UHGV virus genome: UHGV-0300947 | Direction: 5' to 3' (one strand) | DNA length: 11,196 nt | Origin: a virus | Part shown: positions 4,300 through 10,804 of the stretch, piece after piece | Layout: every line of letters starts with the position of its first letter | Numbering within the stretch: position 1 is the first letter of the stretch | Translations under genes and position numbers: made by a program | The notes under the pieces: model-generated | Told to the model about the DNA's origin: nothing | Database searches by the model: none | What the model saw: only the letters and a program-made list of their open reading frames with translations

Positions 4300-4736
4300 G
4301 CCGCCCTGTCTCCCCATCGCGCTTTCCATTCGAGAGCCAGTCGCGCTTCGTCTGACCACTTAACGCCACGCTCTGTACCGAATGCCTGTATAAGCTCTAA
4401 TAGCTCCGCAAATTCGTTTACACGCATCCTGCTGGTTGACTGGCCTATTACCACAAAGCCATTCCCGGCAAGGTTAGGAACAACATCCTGCTGCTTTAAT
4501 GCTGCGGTAAACACACACTTCCAGCTTTCTGCATCCAGCCAGCGACCATGCCATTCAACCTGACGAGAGACGTCACCAAGGCAAGCCCAAAGCTTTCGAT
4601 TCTGGTCTAAGCTGCGGTTGCGTTCCTGAATGGTTACTACGATTGGTTTGGTTGGGTCTGGAAGGATTTGCTGTACTGCGTGAATAGCGTTTTGCTGATG
4701 TGCCGGAGATCGAATTTCAAAGGTTAGTTTTTTCAT
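4296..4736 (-). CDS. ninB: NinB (Orf-family recombination mediator)
   Basis: 146 aa from [56 protein letters not shown]..., near-identical to recalled lambda NinB. The track ORF is extended to an upstream alternative start. Confidence 0.9.
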
Positions 4737-4752
4737 GACTTCCCTCTCCCCC

Positions 4753-4784
4753 AAATAAAAAGGCCTGCGATTACCTGCAGGCCT
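4753..4784 (-). terminator. tR2-like intrinsic terminator upstream of ninB
   Basis: On the - strand AGGCCTGC-AGGTAATC-GCAGGCCT forms a perfect 8-bp stem and is followed by TTTTTATTT. Same position and sequence character as lambda tR2 between ren and ninB. Confidence 0.75.
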
Positions 4785-4809
4785 GTTATTAGCTCAGTGA
4801 TGTAGATGG

Positions 4810-5100
4810 TCATCTTTTAACTCCATATACCGCCAATATCCGTTTCATCGTGGCACTCTGGCGACACTCCTTAAAAATCAGGTTCGTGCTCATCTTTCCT
4901 TCCCGTTCTTCCTTGGTAGCAAACCGGTAATACACCGTTCGCCAGACCTTACCTTCGATAACCAGAAGACCTGCCCGTGCCATTTTAGCCGCGGCCTGAT
5001 TTATGCTGGTTACTGTTGCGCCTGTTAGCGCGGCAACGTCCGGCGCACAGAAGCTATTATGCGTCCCCAGGTAATGAATAATTGCCTCTTTGCCCGTCAT
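4810..5100 (-). CDS. ren: Ren (Rex-exclusion resistance protein)
   Basis: 96 aa MTGKEAIIHYLGTHNSFCAPDVAALTGATVTSINQAAAKMARAGLLVIEGKVWRTVYYRF... matches recalled lambda Ren. Confidence 0.9.
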   Translation of the reverse strand: MTGKEAIIHYLGTHNSFCAPDVAALTGATVTSINQAAAKMARAGLLVIEGKVWRTVYYRFATKEEREGKMSTNLIFKECRQSATMKRILAVYGVKR

Positions 5101-5798
5101 ACACTTGCTCCTTTCAGTCCTAACTTAGCTTTAATTTCTGCGATCTTCGCCAGCGCCTGAACACGATTTAGAGGTCTGCCGCCCATGACAGGAAGTTGTT
5201 TTACTGGTTCAGGTATCGTCTCACCACGGTTAATTCGCGCTGTCATACAGGTCAGTTCATCGGCAGCCTTGCGTCGTAATTCCGCGTCAGTCAGCGCATT
5301 GGCCCGCATGTTCTGGTACAGGTTGGTAACCAGCCAGTAGTGCGCGTTCGATTTCCACGGATAAGACTCTGCATCCGGATACAGGCCTCGCTTCCGGCAA
5401 TACTCGTAAACCATATCAACCAGCTCGCTGACGTTTGGCAGTCCGGCGATAACGGATGCTTCTTCCCGGCACCATGCAACAAACTGCCCGGGTGATGGCA
5501 GAAATGGTCGATTCTGCCGACGGGCTACGCGCATTCCTGCGTTAACCTGTTCCATTGTGGTGATCCCGTTTTCCCGGAAAGCCAGAACCCACTGGCGGCG
5601 GATTTCGTTCAGTTCGTTCTGGTCACGGTTAGCCAGACTCGCCGGGAAAGTTGCCAGTAACTGGCTGAACACACCGTTGATGATCTGCGCTACCTGCTGT
5701 ACCTGCGGCTTTTCGTCGTACTGTTCCGGCATGTTGTTGGCGATCCGACGCATCTGCTCACGGTCAAAATTAACCATCTGTGCGGCGATGTTTTTCAT
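5097..5798 (-). CDS. P: Replication protein P (DnaB helicase loader)
   Basis: 233 aa MKNIAAQMVNFDREQMRRIANNMPEQYDEKPQVQQVAQIINGVFSQLLATF..., near-identical to recalled lambda P. Start overlaps the O stop. Confidence 0.95.
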   Translation of the reverse strand: MKNIAAQMVNFDREQMRRIANNMPEQYDEKPQVQQVAQIINGVFSQLLATFPASLANRDQNELNEIRRQWVLAFRENGITTMEQVNAGMRVARRQNRPFLPSPGQFVAWCREEASVIAGLPNVSELVDMVYEYCRKRGLYPDAESYPWKSNAHYWLVTNLYQNMRANALTDAELRRKAADELTCMTARINRGETIPEPVKQLPVMGGRPLNRVQALAKIAEIKAKLGLKGASV

Positions 5799-6694: not shown

Positions 6695-6703
6695 AATGAC
6701 TCC

Positions 6704-6782
6704 TGTGGATTGATCCAGTAATGACCTCAGAATTCCATCTGGATTTGTTCAGAACGCTCGGTTGCCGCCGGGCGTTTTTTAT
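6704..6782 (+). ncRNA. oop: oop-like antisense RNA with its terminator, overlapping the 3' end of cII
   Basis: Candidate promoter TTGAGT (6669-6674), 17-bp spacer, CATAAT (6692-6697). GC-rich dyad aacgctcggttgccgccgggcg (6753-6774) followed by TTTTTTATT. Length (about 77 nt) and sequence match the lambda oop RNA as recalled. Confidence 0.6.
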
Positions 6783-7023
6783 TGGTGAGTCCATCAAGCG
6801 CATACTTAAAAGCCCTGCTAATCGGACTGATGTCTGATGCCATTCCGAAAGCACACAAGACCGAAGCAATAAATCTCCAGTCCGTTCTGCTTATCTTCGA
6901 TTCATGACAGCCAATCATCTTTGCCAGACCGCGCTGGGTAATAGCTGACAGATTGATAAGTAAATCTGTTTCTGCGCGATCAACGTCACGCTGTGATAGT
7001 TTGCTGTAACTTGTTCTTTCCAT
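6727..7023 (-). CDS. cII: CII-like transcriptional activator (mosaic: non-lambda N-terminal DNA-binding part, lambda-type C-terminus)
   Basis: 98 aa. The C-terminal TNKKRPAATERSEQIQMEF equals the recalled lambda CII C-terminus. The N-terminal 80 aa (MERTSYSKLSQRDVDRAETDLLINLSAITQRGLAKMIGCHESKISR...) is HTH-like but divergent from lambda CII. Confidence 0.8.
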   Translation of the reverse strand: MERTSYSKLSQRDVDRAETDLLINLSAITQRGLAKMIGCHESKISRTDWRFIASVLCAFGMASDISPISRAFKYALDGLTNKKRPAATERSEQIQMEF

Positions 7024-7108
7024 TTCTTAAGATTTCCAATAGTGAATAGTTAGTTGAAAGGTATGCGTGGAAACGCATATGGCCTTAGTTGGTCAGATAT
7101 CTTGGAAC

Positions 7109-7154
7109 TCGCTTTTCAGCGACGTAGGACGAATGTCCGTTGTTACAAAGAGCG
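7109..7154 (-). promoter_or_regulatory. nutR-like site (boxA plus boxB hairpin) downstream of cro
   Basis: On the - strand: boxA-like CGCTCTTTG (plus 7154-7146), then about 23 nt, then boxB-like hairpin UCGCU-GAAA-AGCGA (plus 7122-7109). Closely parallels the nutL-like site at 9791-9835, including a shared CTACGT before boxB. Confidence 0.55.
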
Positions 7155-7164
7155 GATCCGCTTA

Positions 7165-7380
7165 TTAAGCGGCTTTGTGTTCCGGCGGGAACACGTCATC
7201 AAGACTGACTTTTGCGCCTAACTTGTTTAGGCACGCAACAAGAGCACGGCATGTTTTAAGGTCTGGGAAGCGACGACCAGATTCCCAATGTCCGATAGCT
7301 CCCTGTGTGCATCCAACTGCCTTAGCAAGTGTTGTTTGAGAGATATTCAGTGACTCTCGATATTTTCGTAGGTTGCTCAT
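7165..7380 (-). CDS. cro: Cro-like HTH repressor (non-lambda specificity)
   Basis: 71 aa from the internal ATG (7380-7378) preceded by GGAGG: MSNLRKYRESLNISQTTLAKAVGCTQGAIGHWESGRRFPDLKTCRALVACLNKLGAKVSLDDVF... The HTH motif QTTLAKAVGCTQGAIGHW is shared with the CI N-terminus. Divergent from cI. The 128-aa track ORF is an artificial upstream extension. Confidence 0.8.
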   Translation of the reverse strand: MSNLRKYRESLNISQTTLAKAVGCTQGAIGHWESGRRFPDLKTCRALVACLNKLGAKVSLDDVFPPEHKAA

Positions 7381-7497
7381 ATGCCCTCCATAGTAAACAC
7401 GAATAAAAAAATACAATATGTACTTTGCGAATACAAGTAAAAATACACATTGTGCATGGATGGTTCCAGTACAGAGCGTAATAATAAGGACATGAAA
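7381..7497. promoter_or_regulatory. Divergent OR-type operator/promoter region (PR towards cro, PRM towards cI)
   Basis: AT-rich intergenic region between divergent cro and cI with repeated ATACAA/ATACAC motifs and short dyads (tacaatatgta, tactttgcgaatacaagta). Candidate PR on the - strand: TTGTAT (plus 7436-7431), 17 bp, TATTTT (plus 7413-7408). Exact operators not resolved. Confidence 0.55.
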
Positions 7498-8151
7498 ATG
7501 AAATGGTATGAACTGGCTAGATCCAGAATGAAAGAGCTCGGCATAACTCAAGAGAAGTTAGCCGAAGAGCTAGGTATGACGCAGGGTGGGATTGGACACT
7601 GGTTGCGCGGATCTCGTCATCCATCTCTTAGTGATATTGGTGTGGTGTTTAAATACCTTGGTATTGATAACATATCATTCAACCACGACGGGACATTTTC
7701 ACCTGTTGGCGAATACTCATCGGCCCCAGTTAAAAAACAATATGAGTACCCTGTTTTTTCTCATGTTCAGGCTGGGATGTTCTCTCCAGAACTCAGAACC
7801 TTTACCAAAGGCGATGCGGAGAGATTGGTAAGCACAACCAAAAAAGCCAGTGACTCTGCATTCTGGCTTGAGGTTGAAGGTAACTCAATGACCGCACCAA
7901 CAGGTTCCAAACCCAGCTTTCCTGACGGGATGTTAATTCTGGTTGACCCTGAGCAAGCTGTTGAGCCCGGCGATTTCTGCATAGCCAGACTTGGTGGTGA
8001 TGAATTTACCTTCAAGAAACTGATCAGGGATAGCGGTCAGGTGTTTCTACAGCCACTAAACCCACAATACCCAATGATCCCATGCAATGAGAGTTGTTCC
8101 GTTGTGGGGAAAGTTATCGCCAGCCAATGGCCTGAAGAGACGTTTGGGTGA
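7498..8151 (+). CDS. cI: CI-type prophage repressor (N-terminal HTH of non-lambda specificity fused to lambda-type S24 autopeptidase C-terminal domain)
   Basis: The C-terminal about 130 aa ([28 protein letters not shown]...GNSM...FTFKKLIRD...[16 protein letters not shown]) matches recalled lambda CI, including the Ala-Gly cleavage site and catalytic Ser/Lys. The N-terminal HTH ([20 protein letters not shown]) differs from lambda. Start chosen at ATG 7498 (AAGGA 7 nt upstream); ATG 7492 or 7456 are alternatives. Confidence 0.9.
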
Positions 8152-8190
8152 TGAAACCACTTTTATCTACAATTTACAGGGCGGTAAACA

Positions 8191-8748
8191 TTGGCAAAAA
8201 TAGATGATTATCAGCCAAGCCAAGTAGAAGTTGATAAAGTACTTTATTGTAAAAAAATAGTTAACTTTTCTGGCGTTAAATGGAAACAGAAACCAAGTCG
8301 CTCTGATATGTGGCTACAAGCCCATATCATCCCCTTGGATGAGGATTGTATACCTATACAAGGGCTAAAGTTTGAACTGAAATGGAAACCAGATCAGGAT
8401 TCAGAACCTGATGACCCGATTTCTTACCCTAAAATAAATATTATTGCTTTCTATCATAACAAGAGGGTTTTCGCGGTAGATACCTATCACTTTGACAAAC
8501 ACACGAATAGTTACAAGGTCGATCATCCGAAGTACCAAGATATCATTTACGGTGCTCACTACCATGTATACTATGAAGAAGCTGGATACTATAGTGATAG
8601 AATAGCGTTTCCAATCGAAGATGACATAAACCCAGATGACCTGGTAGGGTATTGGAATTACTTCTGTAAACATCTGAACATAACTTACTCTGGGAGAATA
8701 CCTTTACCGCTTGAAGATGAGTCGGGGCAAATGGGGTTTGGAATATGA
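8191..8748 (+). CDS. Hypothetical protein A of the rex-position cassette (no recognisable family; acidic, Tyr/His-rich, no predicted TM segment)
   Basis: 185-aa ORF beginning 40 bp after the cI stop. The first in-frame start after the upstream stop is TTG (8191); the first ATG is at codon 40 (8308). Its stop overlaps the start of the next ORF (ATGA). Sequence is visibly AT-richer than flanking lambda-type genes. Confidence 0.6.
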   Translation: MAKIDDYQPSQVEVDKVLYCKKIVNFSGVKWKQKPSRSDMWLQAHIIPLDEDCIPIQGLKFELKWKPDQDSEPDDPISYPKINIIAFYHNKRVFAVDTYHFDKHTNSYKVDHPKYQDIIYGAHYHVYYEEAGYYSDRIAFPIEDDINPDDLVGYWNYFCKHLNITYSGRIPLPLEDESGQMGFGI

Positions 8749-9497
8749 TGTGCTCAACAGTGATCTCACAACTAGGTTTCGAATGCCATCCAATAGGCAA
8801 GACCTTGAGAATTATCAGTCCATTCACTTACTGTGATGATGGAGAGCATGTCGGTGCCTTTATCCGTGAAGTCAATGGTAGGTATTTAGTTAGTGACAGA
8901 TGCGATGCCTTAATGAATATGGAGGCAAGAGGGATCTCGCTTACCAAAAAACGACTTGATGAGATACGACAATTACTGCTTAAAGAAGGCGCAGAACTCA
9001 ATGCTCGAGGAGAAATCATTGCTTGGGCAACAGAAAAGGATGTCGGTGCGATTACATCGAACATAATTAGAGCTGGTATACTCGCATCAACTTTGTCGTT
9101 AGACTGGTATCAGCCAGTTCAAGCTGAAAAGTTTGAAAGTATGGTTATTGATTATCTATATCACACAGAGCTTAGAGACGCACTTTCTCTTCGTGAAAAC
9201 GTATATGGCTTGAGTGGACATCAAATTACCGTCCCTGTAACAATAAAAACCGACATACCTAAATACGTTTTTACATCAAGCGTGAAACACGGAGGAAGCT
9301 GGAATAGTGCTTACTCATTGCTTGGGAAACTAATTGATCTTAAAGCTTCAAGTGAGGAGTATAACAACAGATTTGTTGTTATAGACAGCGAAGCAATTGG
9401 TGATCAAATGCAACAACTCTCCTTACTCTTCCATGAATCAAGCCAAGTTCTACCATTCTCCAAAAGAGAGACTTGGGTTAAGAGACTTGCAGCATAA
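8745..9497 (+). CDS. Hypothetical protein B of the rex-position cassette (no recognisable family; soluble)
   Basis: 250-aa ORF with ATG start overlapping the upstream stop, followed 5 bp downstream by an intrinsic terminator. No motif I can assign; it does not resemble RexA or RexB. Confidence 0.65.
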   Translation: MMCSTVISQLGFECHPIGKTLRIISPFTYCDDGEHVGAFIREVNGRYLVSDRCDALMNMEARGISLTKKRLDEIRQLLLKEGAELNARGEIIAWATEKDVGAITSNIIRAGILASTLSLDWYQPVQAEKFESMVIDYLYHTELRDALSLRENVYGLSGHQITVPVTIKTDIPKYVFTSSVKHGGSWNSAYSLLGKLIDLKASSEEYNNRFVVIDSEAIGDQMQQLSLLFHESSQVLPFSKRETWVKRLAA

Positions 9498-9502
9498 TAC
9501 AA

Positions 9503-9529
9503 CCCGGCCTCAGCGCCGGGTTTTCTTTG
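9503..9529 (+). terminator. Intrinsic terminator closing the cI-cassette operon (tImm-like)
   Basis: CCCGGC-ctcagc-GCCGGG is a perfect 6-bp GC stem, immediately followed by TTTTCTTTG. Confidence 0.7.
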
Positions 9530-9699
9530 CCTCACGTTCGCCCACCTAAAAACACATAACCAATTATATTTATTGAAAAATAAATAGATGCAACCCACTA
9601 AACCACGCAATTCTGATCTCTCCTTACATCGCCGAGGCAATACATCCACGCTAAAAAACAACACTATTAAATACAAAGCGTTATAAAAAACCACGCCAA

Positions 9700-9751
9700 C
9701 TTACAACAAATTGTATTGATCTTGTAAAGTACATATCGTACTATTTAACCG
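9700..9751 (+). promoter_or_regulatory. Candidate PL promoter with OL-type operators
   Basis: TTGATC (9716-9721), 17-bp spacer, TACTAT (9739-9744). Overlapping dyads TACAACAAATTGTA (9702-9715) and AGTACATATCGTACT (9729-9743) share TACA/TGTA half-sites with the OR region. Confidence 0.5.
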
Positions 9752-9790
9752 TCAGCAGGACGCTGGAAGCCAAATGGAACAGACTGGCAG

Positions 9791-9835
9791 GCTCTTTAAA
9801 CAACGTCGACTCTCGACTACGTGGCTGAAAAGCCA
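9791..9835 (+). promoter_or_regulatory. nutL-like site (boxA plus boxB hairpin)
   Basis: boxA-like GCTCTTTAA (9791-9799) and boxB-like hairpin UGGCU-GAAA-AGCCA (9822-9835), about 100 nt upstream of N. Confidence 0.6.
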
Positions 9836-9933
9836 GATCACCCAACCACATAAGCTGTGGGATGCAATGCCGAAGCAACCGTCTCAGGAGGAGCTTCGAG
9901 ATTGCATCGCCAAAGTTTATTCGGGAGGAATCC

Positions 9934-10206
9934 ATGTCCAGAAAAACAGAATTTAAAGGCACCGCAGCTTCTCGCCGTAGAGCTCGTCGCGCAAATCTGC
10001 AAAGTCAGGAGGCGATCAGCTCCGACAAGCTACACAGGCCAACCCCTTCACGAGTGGTCTTGCAATGCAAGCTCAAACCAGCAATGAGAGCAGAAGTGAT
10101 AACTCTGACAACGTTGACCAGAAAATATGAAGGTTCAACTTGTCTTCCGAACGTAGCTCTTTACGCGGCAGGCTACCGGAAATCAAAACAACTGACGGCG
10201 AGATGA
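9934..10206 (+). CDS. N: N-type antitermination protein (arginine-rich motif; C-terminus resembling P22 gp24-type N)
   Basis: 90 aa from ATG 9934 (GGGAGG 5 nt upstream): MSRKTEFKGTAASRRRARRANLQ... with an N-terminal arginine-rich motif. The C-terminus ...LPNVALYAAGYRKSKQLTAR resembles the recalled P22 N C-terminus. The longer track ORFs are upstream extensions. Confidence 0.8.
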   Translation: MSRKTEFKGTAASRRRARRANLQSQEAISSDKLHRPTPSRVVLQCKLKPAMRAEVITLTTLTRKYEGSTCLPNVALYAAGYRKSKQLTAR

Positions 10207-10222
10207 TAAATTCATTTGCTAA

Positions 10223-10804
10223 TTACTTGTTTTTGCCATGCTTATCCTGAGCGATAAGTTCATCCATAAGGCTGTCTGCCTTCCCGGCAAACCTAATGTA
10301 GCACTCATGTCTATAGCTTTCAGGGATAACGAAACGGTCGGTATCAGGATATCCAACAGCAGGAGGCCTTCGAACGAGGAGTCCTTTTTTGAGCAATGAA
10401 ATTGATTCATGAGCGCCCTTTTCCGTTTGTAGCTGGTTATTAGCGGCTACAGCGAATGCCAAATACGCTCTTTCTCCAAGAGTTAACGAATCAAACAAAT
10501 CTTGCACATATTTTTCTTCTTTAGATTTGCGCTTCTGAGCAGCGAATACCTCAATTCTTTCAGTCACAGCGTGATAAGCGGAATTAACAACGCCGTTAAG
10601 CACATAGCTAACGCAAAACAACAGGATGTAATACATCCAGTAATGAGGAAGGATTTCTGGATTATGCAGGTTTATCCATTCTTTTACGCTTACCGGCATA
10701 ACAATAATCAATATGATCAGGATGATTAGCATATGAATCAACTGTTTAAGTGTCATTCCTTGCAGGAAAAAATGCATTAGTTCCTGCCACCATGAGTTGT
10801 TCAT
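10223..10804 (-). CDS. sieB: SieB superinfection exclusion protein (membrane protein)
   Basis: 193 aa MNNSWWQELMHFFLQGMTLKQLIHMLIILIILIIVMPVSVKEWINLHNPEILPHYWMYYILLFCVSYVL... with two hydrophobic helices; matches the lambda/P22 SieB family as recalled. Convergent with N. Confidence 0.85.
   Translation of the reverse strand: MNNSWWQELMHFFLQGMTLKQLIHMLIILIILIIVMPVSVKEWINLHNPEILPHYWMYYILLFCVSYVLNGVVNSAYHAVTERIEVFAAQKRKSKEEKYVQDLFDSLTLGERAYLAFAVAANNQLQTEKGAHESISLLKKGLLVRRPPAVGYPDTDRFVIPESYRHECYIRFAGKADSLMDELIAQDKHGKNK

Follow-up and report, generated by a model that had tools for sequence, protein, structure and literature searches.

The question raised by this locus is what a lambdoid prophage carries in the place where lambda carries rexA and rexB. 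The window analyzed here, the whole 11,196-nucleotide stretch of the UHGV virus genome UHGV-0300947, covers the immunity region and early genes of a lambdoid prophage, in an orientation opposite to that of the lambda map. Rex, located in the lambdoid slot between the repressor and PL, was the first abortive-infection system to be found. RexA is a 279-aa cytoplasmic DNA-binding protein and RexB a polytopic membrane protein, and to our knowledge the Rex mechanism is still not understood. In the window, the same slot holds a cassette of two genes, referred to as A and B. The cassette is best explained as a swappable unit of the repressor-to-PL slot, a positional and functional counterpart of rexAB that is unrelated to it, and the probability that it is a two-protein, lysogen-expressed anti-phage module, of the superinfection-exclusion or abortive-infection type, was estimated at roughly 0.55. 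This reading draws on the slot and operon structure, the conserved linkage of A with B and of the pair with a repressor, the flags raised by PADLOC and DefensePredictor, the other known occupants of the slot (RexAB and BstA), and the protein architecture. The features of the operon are as follows.

7456-8151, plus strand: cI-type repressor with a helix-turn-helix (HTH) domain and an S24 peptidase domain (Pfam Peptidase_S24, E = 1e-28, and HTH_3; RefSeq "LexA family protein" at equivalent coordinates)
8152-8190, plus strand: 39-nt spacer between cI and A, with a weak Shine-Dalgarno sequence, AGGGCGG
8191-8748, plus strand: gene A, 185 aa, TTG start
8745-9497, plus strand: gene B, 250 aa, ATG start
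8745-8748, plus strand: ATGA overlap of the A stop and the B start, read from the sequence
9501-9530, plus strand: intrinsic terminator after B, with its hairpin at 9501-9522; homologue of lambda t_imm

For the comparison with lambda, blastn gave 93% identity over 7741-8152, ending 1 nt past the cI stop. Identity resumed at 9501-9622 (90%), corresponding to lambda 35826-35708, which comprises the last bases of rexB and t_imm, and no nucleotide similarity to lambda was found by blastn between 8152 and 9501. The recombination junctions with lambda lie at 8152/8153 on the left and 9500/9501 on the right, with 1348 bp here in place of the 1400 bp that carry rexA-rexB in lambda. Since lambda identity breaks off at the cI stop and restarts at t_imm, the cassette is an exact substitute for rexA-rexB, and the rexA-rexB position assigned to it by the original prediction was confirmed to the nucleotide.

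The two proteins did not resemble those that they replace. When A and B of both E. coli alleles (see below) were compared with lambda RexA by blastp, only chance matches were obtained (E of at least 0.2); no similarity of A or B to RexB was found, and Rex families were absent from the Pfam and PHROG matches of both proteins. No transmembrane segment was detected in A or B by hydropathy, the maximum Kyte-Doolittle 19-residue mean being 0.45 for A and 1.19 for B, compared with 2.39 for RexB. Both absences had been noted from the sequence beforehand, as had the AT richness of the segment: its GC content of 39.5% was the lowest of all 985 windows of the same length in the 11.2 kb (median, 47.7%). 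The cassette therefore shares with RexAB an identical slot and identical junctions, two genes on the cI strand, low GC, and lysogen-side transcription, but differs from it in showing no sequence similarity, in having no RexB-like membrane protein, and in its folds, which are chaperone-like and PD-(D/E)xK-like in B and an orphan fold in A.

The anatomy of the locus places cI as the upstream gene of an operon with A and B. No terminator-like structure was found in the 39-nt spacer between cI and A, where the fold was no better than that of shuffles (z = +1.0). The terminator after B, by contrast with the spacer, has an 8-bp GC-rich stem with a folding energy of -14.6 kcal/mol (z = -3.6) followed by UUUUCUUU, a U tract, and is as clean an intrinsic terminator as had been proposed. 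The ATGA overlap, together with both open reading frames (ORFs) of 185 and 250 aa, was recovered at the same coordinates in the RefSeq annotation of E. coli Nissle 1917, and it indicates that A and B are likely to be translationally coupled. Promoter-like sites in 7000-10300, including those at 8173-8330 around the A start, numbered 5, against 6.7 expected from shuffles, and no internal promoter of the cassette is proposed. On the far side of the terminator, two further features delimit the slot.

9716-9750, plus strand: putative PL promoter/operator, TTGATC-17-TACTAT, with an 8/12 consensus match, below the threshold of the promoter scanner
9934-10206, plus strand: N antiterminator (Pfam N_peptide, E = 1e-32; RefSeq CDS at the equivalent position), the far-side boundary of the slot

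An 11-nt operator-like word, AAAGTACATAT, is present at 9726-9736, and an inverted copy lies at 7416-7426 in the cro-cI intergenic region. On the basis of this shared word, OL/PL appears to sit beyond the terminator, directed away from the cassette and toward N. With no terminator between cI and A, a t_imm-type end after B, and a putative PL directed away, the repressor transcript from PRM/PRE would be the only evident source of cassette transcription.

The repressor gene itself is a mosaic with a junction near 7741. Its C-terminal (S24) half showed 93% DNA identity to lambda cI, while no nucleotide similarity to lambda cI was detectable in its N-terminal DNA-binding half, a combination implying that a lambda-type cleavage domain is joined to an immunity specificity other than that of lambda.

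The segment 8152-9530 was 100% identical in six phage records (two of ev017, two of ev207, and one each of the ECOR13 phages PhiR57_1 and PhiR63_2), and a seventh record, from a Stx1a-converting phage, was 99.9% identical. Of 5426 complete E. coli genomes, 250 carried the segment at an identity of at least 99%, with 100% identity among the matches listed, which included Nissle 1917 (in a defective prophage at icd), ATCC 25922, ATCC 11775, NU14, and avian pathogenic E. coli (APEC) O18. A second allele, with products of 180 aa and 258 aa, was found in 61 of the same genomes, in the same slot and with the same lambda junctions; its carriers include a prophage of E. coli ED1a (cro-cI 96% identical to lambda) and the O104:H4 outbreak lineage. 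The corresponding number for rexAB was 99. Between the two alleles A is 40% and B 52% identical, so that A diverges faster than B. Their ends are nearly identical, at 8191-8234 (the first ~44 nt of A) and within 9363-9622, the latter comprising the last ~35 to 135 nt of B and the terminator, while the interiors show ~65% identity or fall below detection (window against loci L010 and L012). This pattern suggests either that recombination has recurred at the conserved ends or that selection has diversified the interior.

To define the linkage of the pair, 7 genome loci and 80 IMG/VR viral contigs encoding a B relative of 47 to 100% identity were examined. In every one of these 87 loci, B was immediately preceded by a relative of A, with an alignment gap of -9 to +9 nt. 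A cI/S24-type gene was located immediately upstream on the same strand in ~68 loci; in the other 19, the upstream ORF was nearly always another type of HTH repressor (933W-like, a short 131-aa HTH protein, and others), and in a few of these an extra small ORF intervened. The nearest upstream proteins formed 33 clusters at 70% identity, and the cassette therefore appears to have been combined with roughly 30 immunity types. The range of the pair extends from Enterobacterales to phages of Aeromonas and Pseudomonas, with identity falling from ~100% to ~21 to 29%.

Several of these loci showed individual features. In L043 (IMGVR_UViG_2526164629_000012), a frameshift was found near the A start, at about 4447-5001, with B intact and 100% identical; it may represent a possible inactivation of A. 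An extra 113-aa ORF (MAFNDIE...) lies between the repressor and A in some loci of Providencia, Izhakiella, and related viral contigs (L004, about 5050-5395; L002, 5044-5385). In Pseudomonas phage VB_PaD_phPA-G, the pair was present at 23 to 29% identity downstream of a CI-like repressor, with a 216-aa ORF in between. The A homologue of this phage is an unannotated ORF (L015, 3486-4004; PP083311.1, about 14515-15033) where GenBank has no gene; it starts with MAKQK..., contains an HxH motif, ends in GQMGFDV, and has an ATGA overlap with the annotated B homologue. No further phage relatives were found by tblastn from the Pseudomonas homologue. The A family is very small, with 20 clusters at E of 1e-3 or below among 1.84 billion representatives. 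For A members at 21 to 25% identity, a protein of ~230 to 250 aa was encoded just downstream of A; among four such pairs examined, the 4-nt overlap was found in three, a weak DUF1828 match of the partner in three, and an S24 gene in front of the pair in one. One distant pair lies beside a resolvase gene, with no repressor in view.

The pair is already a catalogued defense candidate. In PADLOC, B matched PDC-M24B along its length (PDLC04540, E = 4.7e-10, residues 2 to 249 of 250; PDLC04539, E = 1.5e-7), and A matched PDC-M24A over residues 104 to 163 only (PDLC04536, E = 4.8e-4). Three PDC-M24A sub-models were matched, each by 1 to 3 of 15 A-family members, and neither protein had any PADLOC match other than PDC-M24. 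PDC-M24 is cassette CAS_00098, FAM_00129>>FAM_00065, of Payne et al. (bioRxiv 10.1101/2024.01.29.577857), and the A>>B order and adjacency are the same here. PDC candidates were defined by embedding within BREX, DISARM, or type I restriction-modification (RM) loci (bioRxiv 10.1101/2024.01.29.577857), whereas the context here and in the 87 related loci is a prophage immunity region. The likeness to PDC-M24 consists of the two-gene order, the end-to-end match of B, and weak matches of A within its conserved C-terminal third; the differences are the distance of the matches (for B, E = 5e-10; for A, 5e-4) and the location of this branch downstream of prophage repressors. The best reading of these matches is that the cassette represents a prophage-borne branch of the PDC-M24 candidate family. 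Millman et al. 2022 was also considered as the source of the PDC-M models and was discarded, its supplements containing neither DUF1828 nor the SGH[QNKERD] motif; the source is Payne et al.

The second line of prediction came from DefensePredictor (DeWeirdt et al., Science 2026, PMC13092281), whose 69-strain Table S5 gives "Predicted novel defense gene" for both exact proteins of the Nissle 1917 locus (A, WP_001062368.1; B, WP_000968518.1) and whose 3000-strain Table S10 includes WP_001062368.1 and a near-identical B variant, WP_000968517.1. The mean log-odds were 5.6 for WP_000968518.1 and 4.9 to 5.4 for WP_001062368.1, with a strict cutoff of 4, and B was annotated there as DUF1828 plus DUF1829 (PMC13092281). 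The accessions of both alleles and the term DUF1828 were absent from Tables S6 (screened transcription units) and S8 (domains of validated systems) of that study, so the pair seems to lie outside its experimental screen. The same study validated another DUF1829 protein, DS-6B/HipAD, whose partner is a HipA-like toxin kinase and whose N-terminal domain is DUF3037, unlike that of B (PMC13092281).

The slot itself has a record in defense. The region between cI and N is a mosaic hotspot with the abortive-infection genes RexAB and BstA (PMC8585504), and its mosaicism was first described by Degnan 2007, as cited in PMC8585504. BstA of Salmonella BTP1 and relatives resembles the cassette in being a defense gene downstream of a prophage repressor, presumably under a common promoter and in diverse prophages, and differs from it in consisting of one protein, accompanied by an anti-BstA DNA element of its own (PMC8585504). 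HepS of Gifsy-1 (Nature 2026) was examined as well and is unrelated, being a single HEPN protein. Given these results, two claims of the original prediction had to be abandoned: B does belong to a recognizable family, as it exceeds the Pfam DUF1828 threshold and both proteins match PDC-M24 models, and the module is not undescribed, given the PDC-M24 match, the DefensePredictor listing of both exact proteins, and a slot already known as a mosaic hotspot. Its broader picture was supported: a moron exchanged horizontally that occupies the place of rexAB without being related to Rex, is probably read from the cI transcript, and is credible as an anti-phage candidate.

These data also bear on whether the pair is instead a moron for host fitness or virulence unrelated to phages, like bor or lom, or cargo without a selected function in the lysogen. 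Low GC is typical of any moron, and the E. coli matches listed were enriched in extraintestinal pathogenic, avian pathogenic, and commensal B2-type strains (Nissle 1917, NU14, APEC O18, and ATCC 25922). Set against this are the conservation of intact ORFs as a pair, from ~100% down to ~21 to 29% identity in phages of Enterobacterales, Aeromonas, and Pseudomonas; the absence of a signal peptide or membrane segment, unlike in surface virulence morons; and the flagging of the pair by both defense-prediction approaches. A role of this kind is considered quite improbable.

For protein A, two parts of the gene were of particular interest.

8479-8565, plus strand: codons for the invariant cluster D97, H104, N106, G121, H123, and H125
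8698-8745, plus strand: conserved C-terminal tail, predicted to be disordered (P..LEDESGQMGFGI), a putative docking motif

Protein A is soluble, acidic (pI 5.3), and mostly beta. RefSeq places its TTG start at the same coordinates in Nissle 1917, the (M)AK N-terminus is kept at the same position in all homologues from the 87 related loci, and the start codon is GTG in most of these loci, TTG in this allele, and ATG in two only. From the conserved (M)AK position and the GTG/TTG usage across loci, the weak start, pointed out in the original prediction as unusual, is a conserved property of the gene as read from the alignment and not an annotation problem. Residues K22, W31, R92, D97, H104, N106, G121, H123, H125, F158, and P173 were invariant or nearly so throughout the family, down to 21% identity. 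In the structure model (predicted local distance difference test [pLDDT] score, 82; mostly beta), H123-x-H125 lies on a single strand with H104 and D97 on neighboring strands. Such an arrangement would be expected of a metal site, and the His/Asp cluster is a putative active or metal-binding site. Residues 175 to 185 had pLDDT values below 50 and the last ~15 residues are predicted to be disordered, and P173 and the G-Q-x-x-hydrophobic end were conserved throughout the family, including the Pseudomonas homologue. Such conservation despite predicted disorder makes the tail a putative docking peptide.

Against Pfam DUF6978 (PF22398), A scored 22.0 bits (threshold, 29.6) over residues 104 to 164 only, and 5 of 15 A-family members matched this family, with a best E value of 1e-4; at best, A may be a distant relative of DUF6978. 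Searches of PDB sequences with the single proteins and with family profiles gave nothing real. With the A profile, the designed Kelch propeller SAKe6AC (8pjr) was matched at E = 3e-12; this result was rejected as an artefact, since it summed six matches of 5.6 to 7.5 bits over six identical blades; the beta-hairpin motif behind it is RIYAVD..H.N, and the relation to Kelch was judged to be chance or convergent. The resemblance to the Kelch blade consensus is located at residues ~83 to 108 (window ~8437-8514), with the pattern n-K-R-[VI]-[FY]-A-V-D-x-x-x-x-D-x-H-x-N.

Protein B matched Pfam DUF1828 (PF08861) at 33.5 bits (threshold, 22) over residues 26 to 110, and its AlphaFold model (pLDDT, 80) has two domains. 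Residues 1 to ~120 form the DUF1828 domain, with a fold like that of YbjN and type III secretion chaperones, and residues ~125 to 250 form a DUF1829-type domain with a PD-(D/E)xK restriction-endonuclease-like fold (alpha-beta-beta-beta-alpha-beta core). In hmmscan, DUF1829 (PF08862, PDDEXK clan CL0236) gave no match to B at E of 1 or below; the HHpred result listed for B in Table S5 of PMC13092281 is DUF1829 with a probability of 98.8% over residues 155 to 241, and the C-terminal fold agrees with the PDDEXK clan. Invariant residues were S25, P26, D32, D51, and G89-E90-I91 in the first domain and F130, V134, L138, S157-G158(-H159), W186, D198, R209, and an acidic residue at position 214 in the second. 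Strand 2 opens with the invariant S157-G158-H159, and the K173-Y-V-F-T-S of strand 3 is not kept in distant homologues. Compared with nucleases that join a sensor to a PD-(D/E)xK domain (Can2/Card1, Upx, and Shedu-type) and with the NgoMIV/PspGI/Cfr10I group of type II enzymes, B has no canonical D...(D/E)xK; its N-terminal domain is YbjN/type III chaperone-like rather than CARF/SAVED; and A accompanies it as an obligatory partner.

Because its DNA-enzyme fold lacks the canonical catalytic residues, the C-terminal domain of B would be compatible with DNA binding only. The pair might thus have an accessory part in regulating the lysis-lysogeny switch or prophage induction, a role recently proposed for RexA, with the nuclease-like domain of B acting on phage or host DNA. 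The slot and transcript shared with cI fit such a role, and two studies report that RexA binds DNA and biases the switch (PMC11077077; bioRxiv 10.1101/2021.04.19.439022). Combination with ~30 repressor types and different operators argues, however, against partner-specific regulation; the PDC-M24 relatives come from BREX, DISARM, and RM loci, outside any phage switch; and the distant pair beside a resolvase has no repressor in view. Regulation of the switch is considered very unlikely.

Somewhat less improbable, although still unlikely, is a toxin-antitoxin-like addiction or stabilization module that retains the prophage or its immunity region, with phage exclusion as a secondary effect. The two genes are small, strictly linked, and translationally coupled, the conserved GTG/TTG start of A would suit a need to limit the dose of a toxic partner, a HipA-like toxin is paired with a DUF1829 protein in DS-6, and A is naturally frameshifted with B retained in L043. 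However, no known toxin or antitoxin family was matched in Pfam, NCBIfam, or PADLOC, neither protein has an HTH or other autoregulator domain, and no dedicated promoter is evident for the pair, which rides on the repressor transcript. The two ideas are not mutually exclusive, and addiction is in part a sub-case of the anti-phage reading.

For the anti-phage module, a mechanism can be proposed from the conserved residues, the weak start, the disordered tail, and fold analogies; in this detail it is tentative and of low probability. Protein A would be the effector, a small metal-dependent enzyme built on the invariant D97/H104/N106/H123-x-H125 cluster, and its conserved GTG/TTG start would keep its dose low. 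Protein B would be the sensor or regulator, its DUF1828 domain, similar to type III chaperones, holding A, probably via the disordered C-terminal tail, and its degenerate PD-(D/E)xK (DUF1829) domain binding either nucleic acid or some product of the phage. When a heterologous phage infects the cell, the A-B complex would be disturbed, and the released activity would block phage growth. The working analogy is with toxin-antitoxin-chaperone (TAC) systems, in which SecB-like chaperones are reported to bind a chaperone-addiction element (bioRxiv 10.1101/2024.02.24.581848), much as the DUF1828 domain might hold the A tail; the cassette differs from them in having two genes rather than three and a YbjN/type III secretion-class fold rather than that of SecB, and no homology was detected. 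A still more speculative form, and an improbable one, is that A has a new fold and metal-dependent activity and is leashed by its tail to the chaperone-like domain of B, so that a phage product competing for or remodeling the sensor would free A, a "chaperone-addiction" style of switch unlike characterized systems.

Several points weigh against the anti-phage reading or its parts. No functional study, name, or mechanism of the pair or of PDC-M24 was found in the full-text literature searched, which did not cover Degnan 2007. In the DefensePredictor study, 45% of the cloned predictions were validated and more than half were not (PMC13092281), and, because gene neighborhood enters the prediction, its score overlaps with the argument from the slot. 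The A model had no informative structural neighbors, the term "enzyme" for A comes only from the conserved residue pattern, and the matches of A to DUF6978 and PDC-M24A are weak (E ~1e-4, in the C-terminal third, and subthreshold in Pfam). In an alignment of the B family reaching 26 to 31% identity, the canonical D...(D/E)xK residues of strands 2 and 3 were not conserved, and nuclease activity of B is therefore doubtful; the domain might instead serve in binding, or its active site might be relocated, as it is in NgoMIV/Cfr10I. Docking of the A tail onto B, derived from the conserved disordered tail, is suggestive at most, and the effector and sensor roles of the two proteins could be reversed.

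The surroundings of the cassette are those of a lambdoid early region. On the minus strand of the window, the gene order is lysis genes, a Q-like gene, the nin region, P, O, cII, and cro; beyond cro follow cI, A, B, and N on the plus strand and then sieB on the minus strand. The RefSeq version of N is short (90 aa, 9934-10206), the longest ORF beginning at 9862, and a 60-aa hypothetical ORF in RefSeq at 9774-9956 overlaps the N start region. Just past N, at 10223-10804, lies a SieB-family superinfection-exclusion gene (Pfam SieB, E = 2.5e-22; PHROG 1301, E = 3e-122), and the immunity region thus has a second exclusion function, of known type, beside the cassette. No known RNA families were found anywhere in the window with Rfam.

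A further observation concerns prophage 3 of Nissle 1917. Bury et al. 2018 (PMC5987069) considered "the entire prophage 3" responsible for the unexplained residual resistance of this strain to lambda and Stx phages. In the window, the primers with which they cloned the "phage repressor (pr)" lie at 6699-6720 and 7051-7069, and the amplified fragment therefore carries the CII homologue (cII, 6727-7023, minus strand) and not the cI repressor. The same fragment was reported to reduce plating of lambda and Stx phages more than 200-fold, and the authors note a further, unidentified factor in the prophage (PMC5987069). If the chaperone-addiction style of switch is real, its distribution in E. coli would exceed that of RexAB, and it might explain this residual resistance.

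The pair is a catalogued defense candidate for which no functional study was found, and to which this analysis adds the exact junctions of the rexAB replacement; the strict linkage of A to B and to a repressor over ~30 immunity types and into Pseudomonas; a second allele and how often each of the two occurs; the conservation of the non-ATG start; the assignment of domains and folds with the missing nuclease motif; and the candidate active site and tail of A. The cassette is a naturally occurring and exact allelic substitute for rexAB, commoner than rexAB in sequenced E. coli, and well-studied strains carry it: the probiotic Nissle 1917, the reference strains ATCC 25922 and ATCC 11775, and the uropathogenic E. 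coli NU14 for the first allele and the O104:H4 lineage and ED1a for the second. Should it prove to be a defense system, it would provide an easily testable E. coli representative of the PDC-M24 and DefensePredictor predictions, for which isogenic lambda (rexAB) comparators exist. It would also constitute a mechanistically new two-protein module, pairing an orphan-fold His-cluster protein with a chaperone-like/degenerate-nuclease protein, and would be relevant to phage therapy and to the resistance of probiotic strains to Stx phages.

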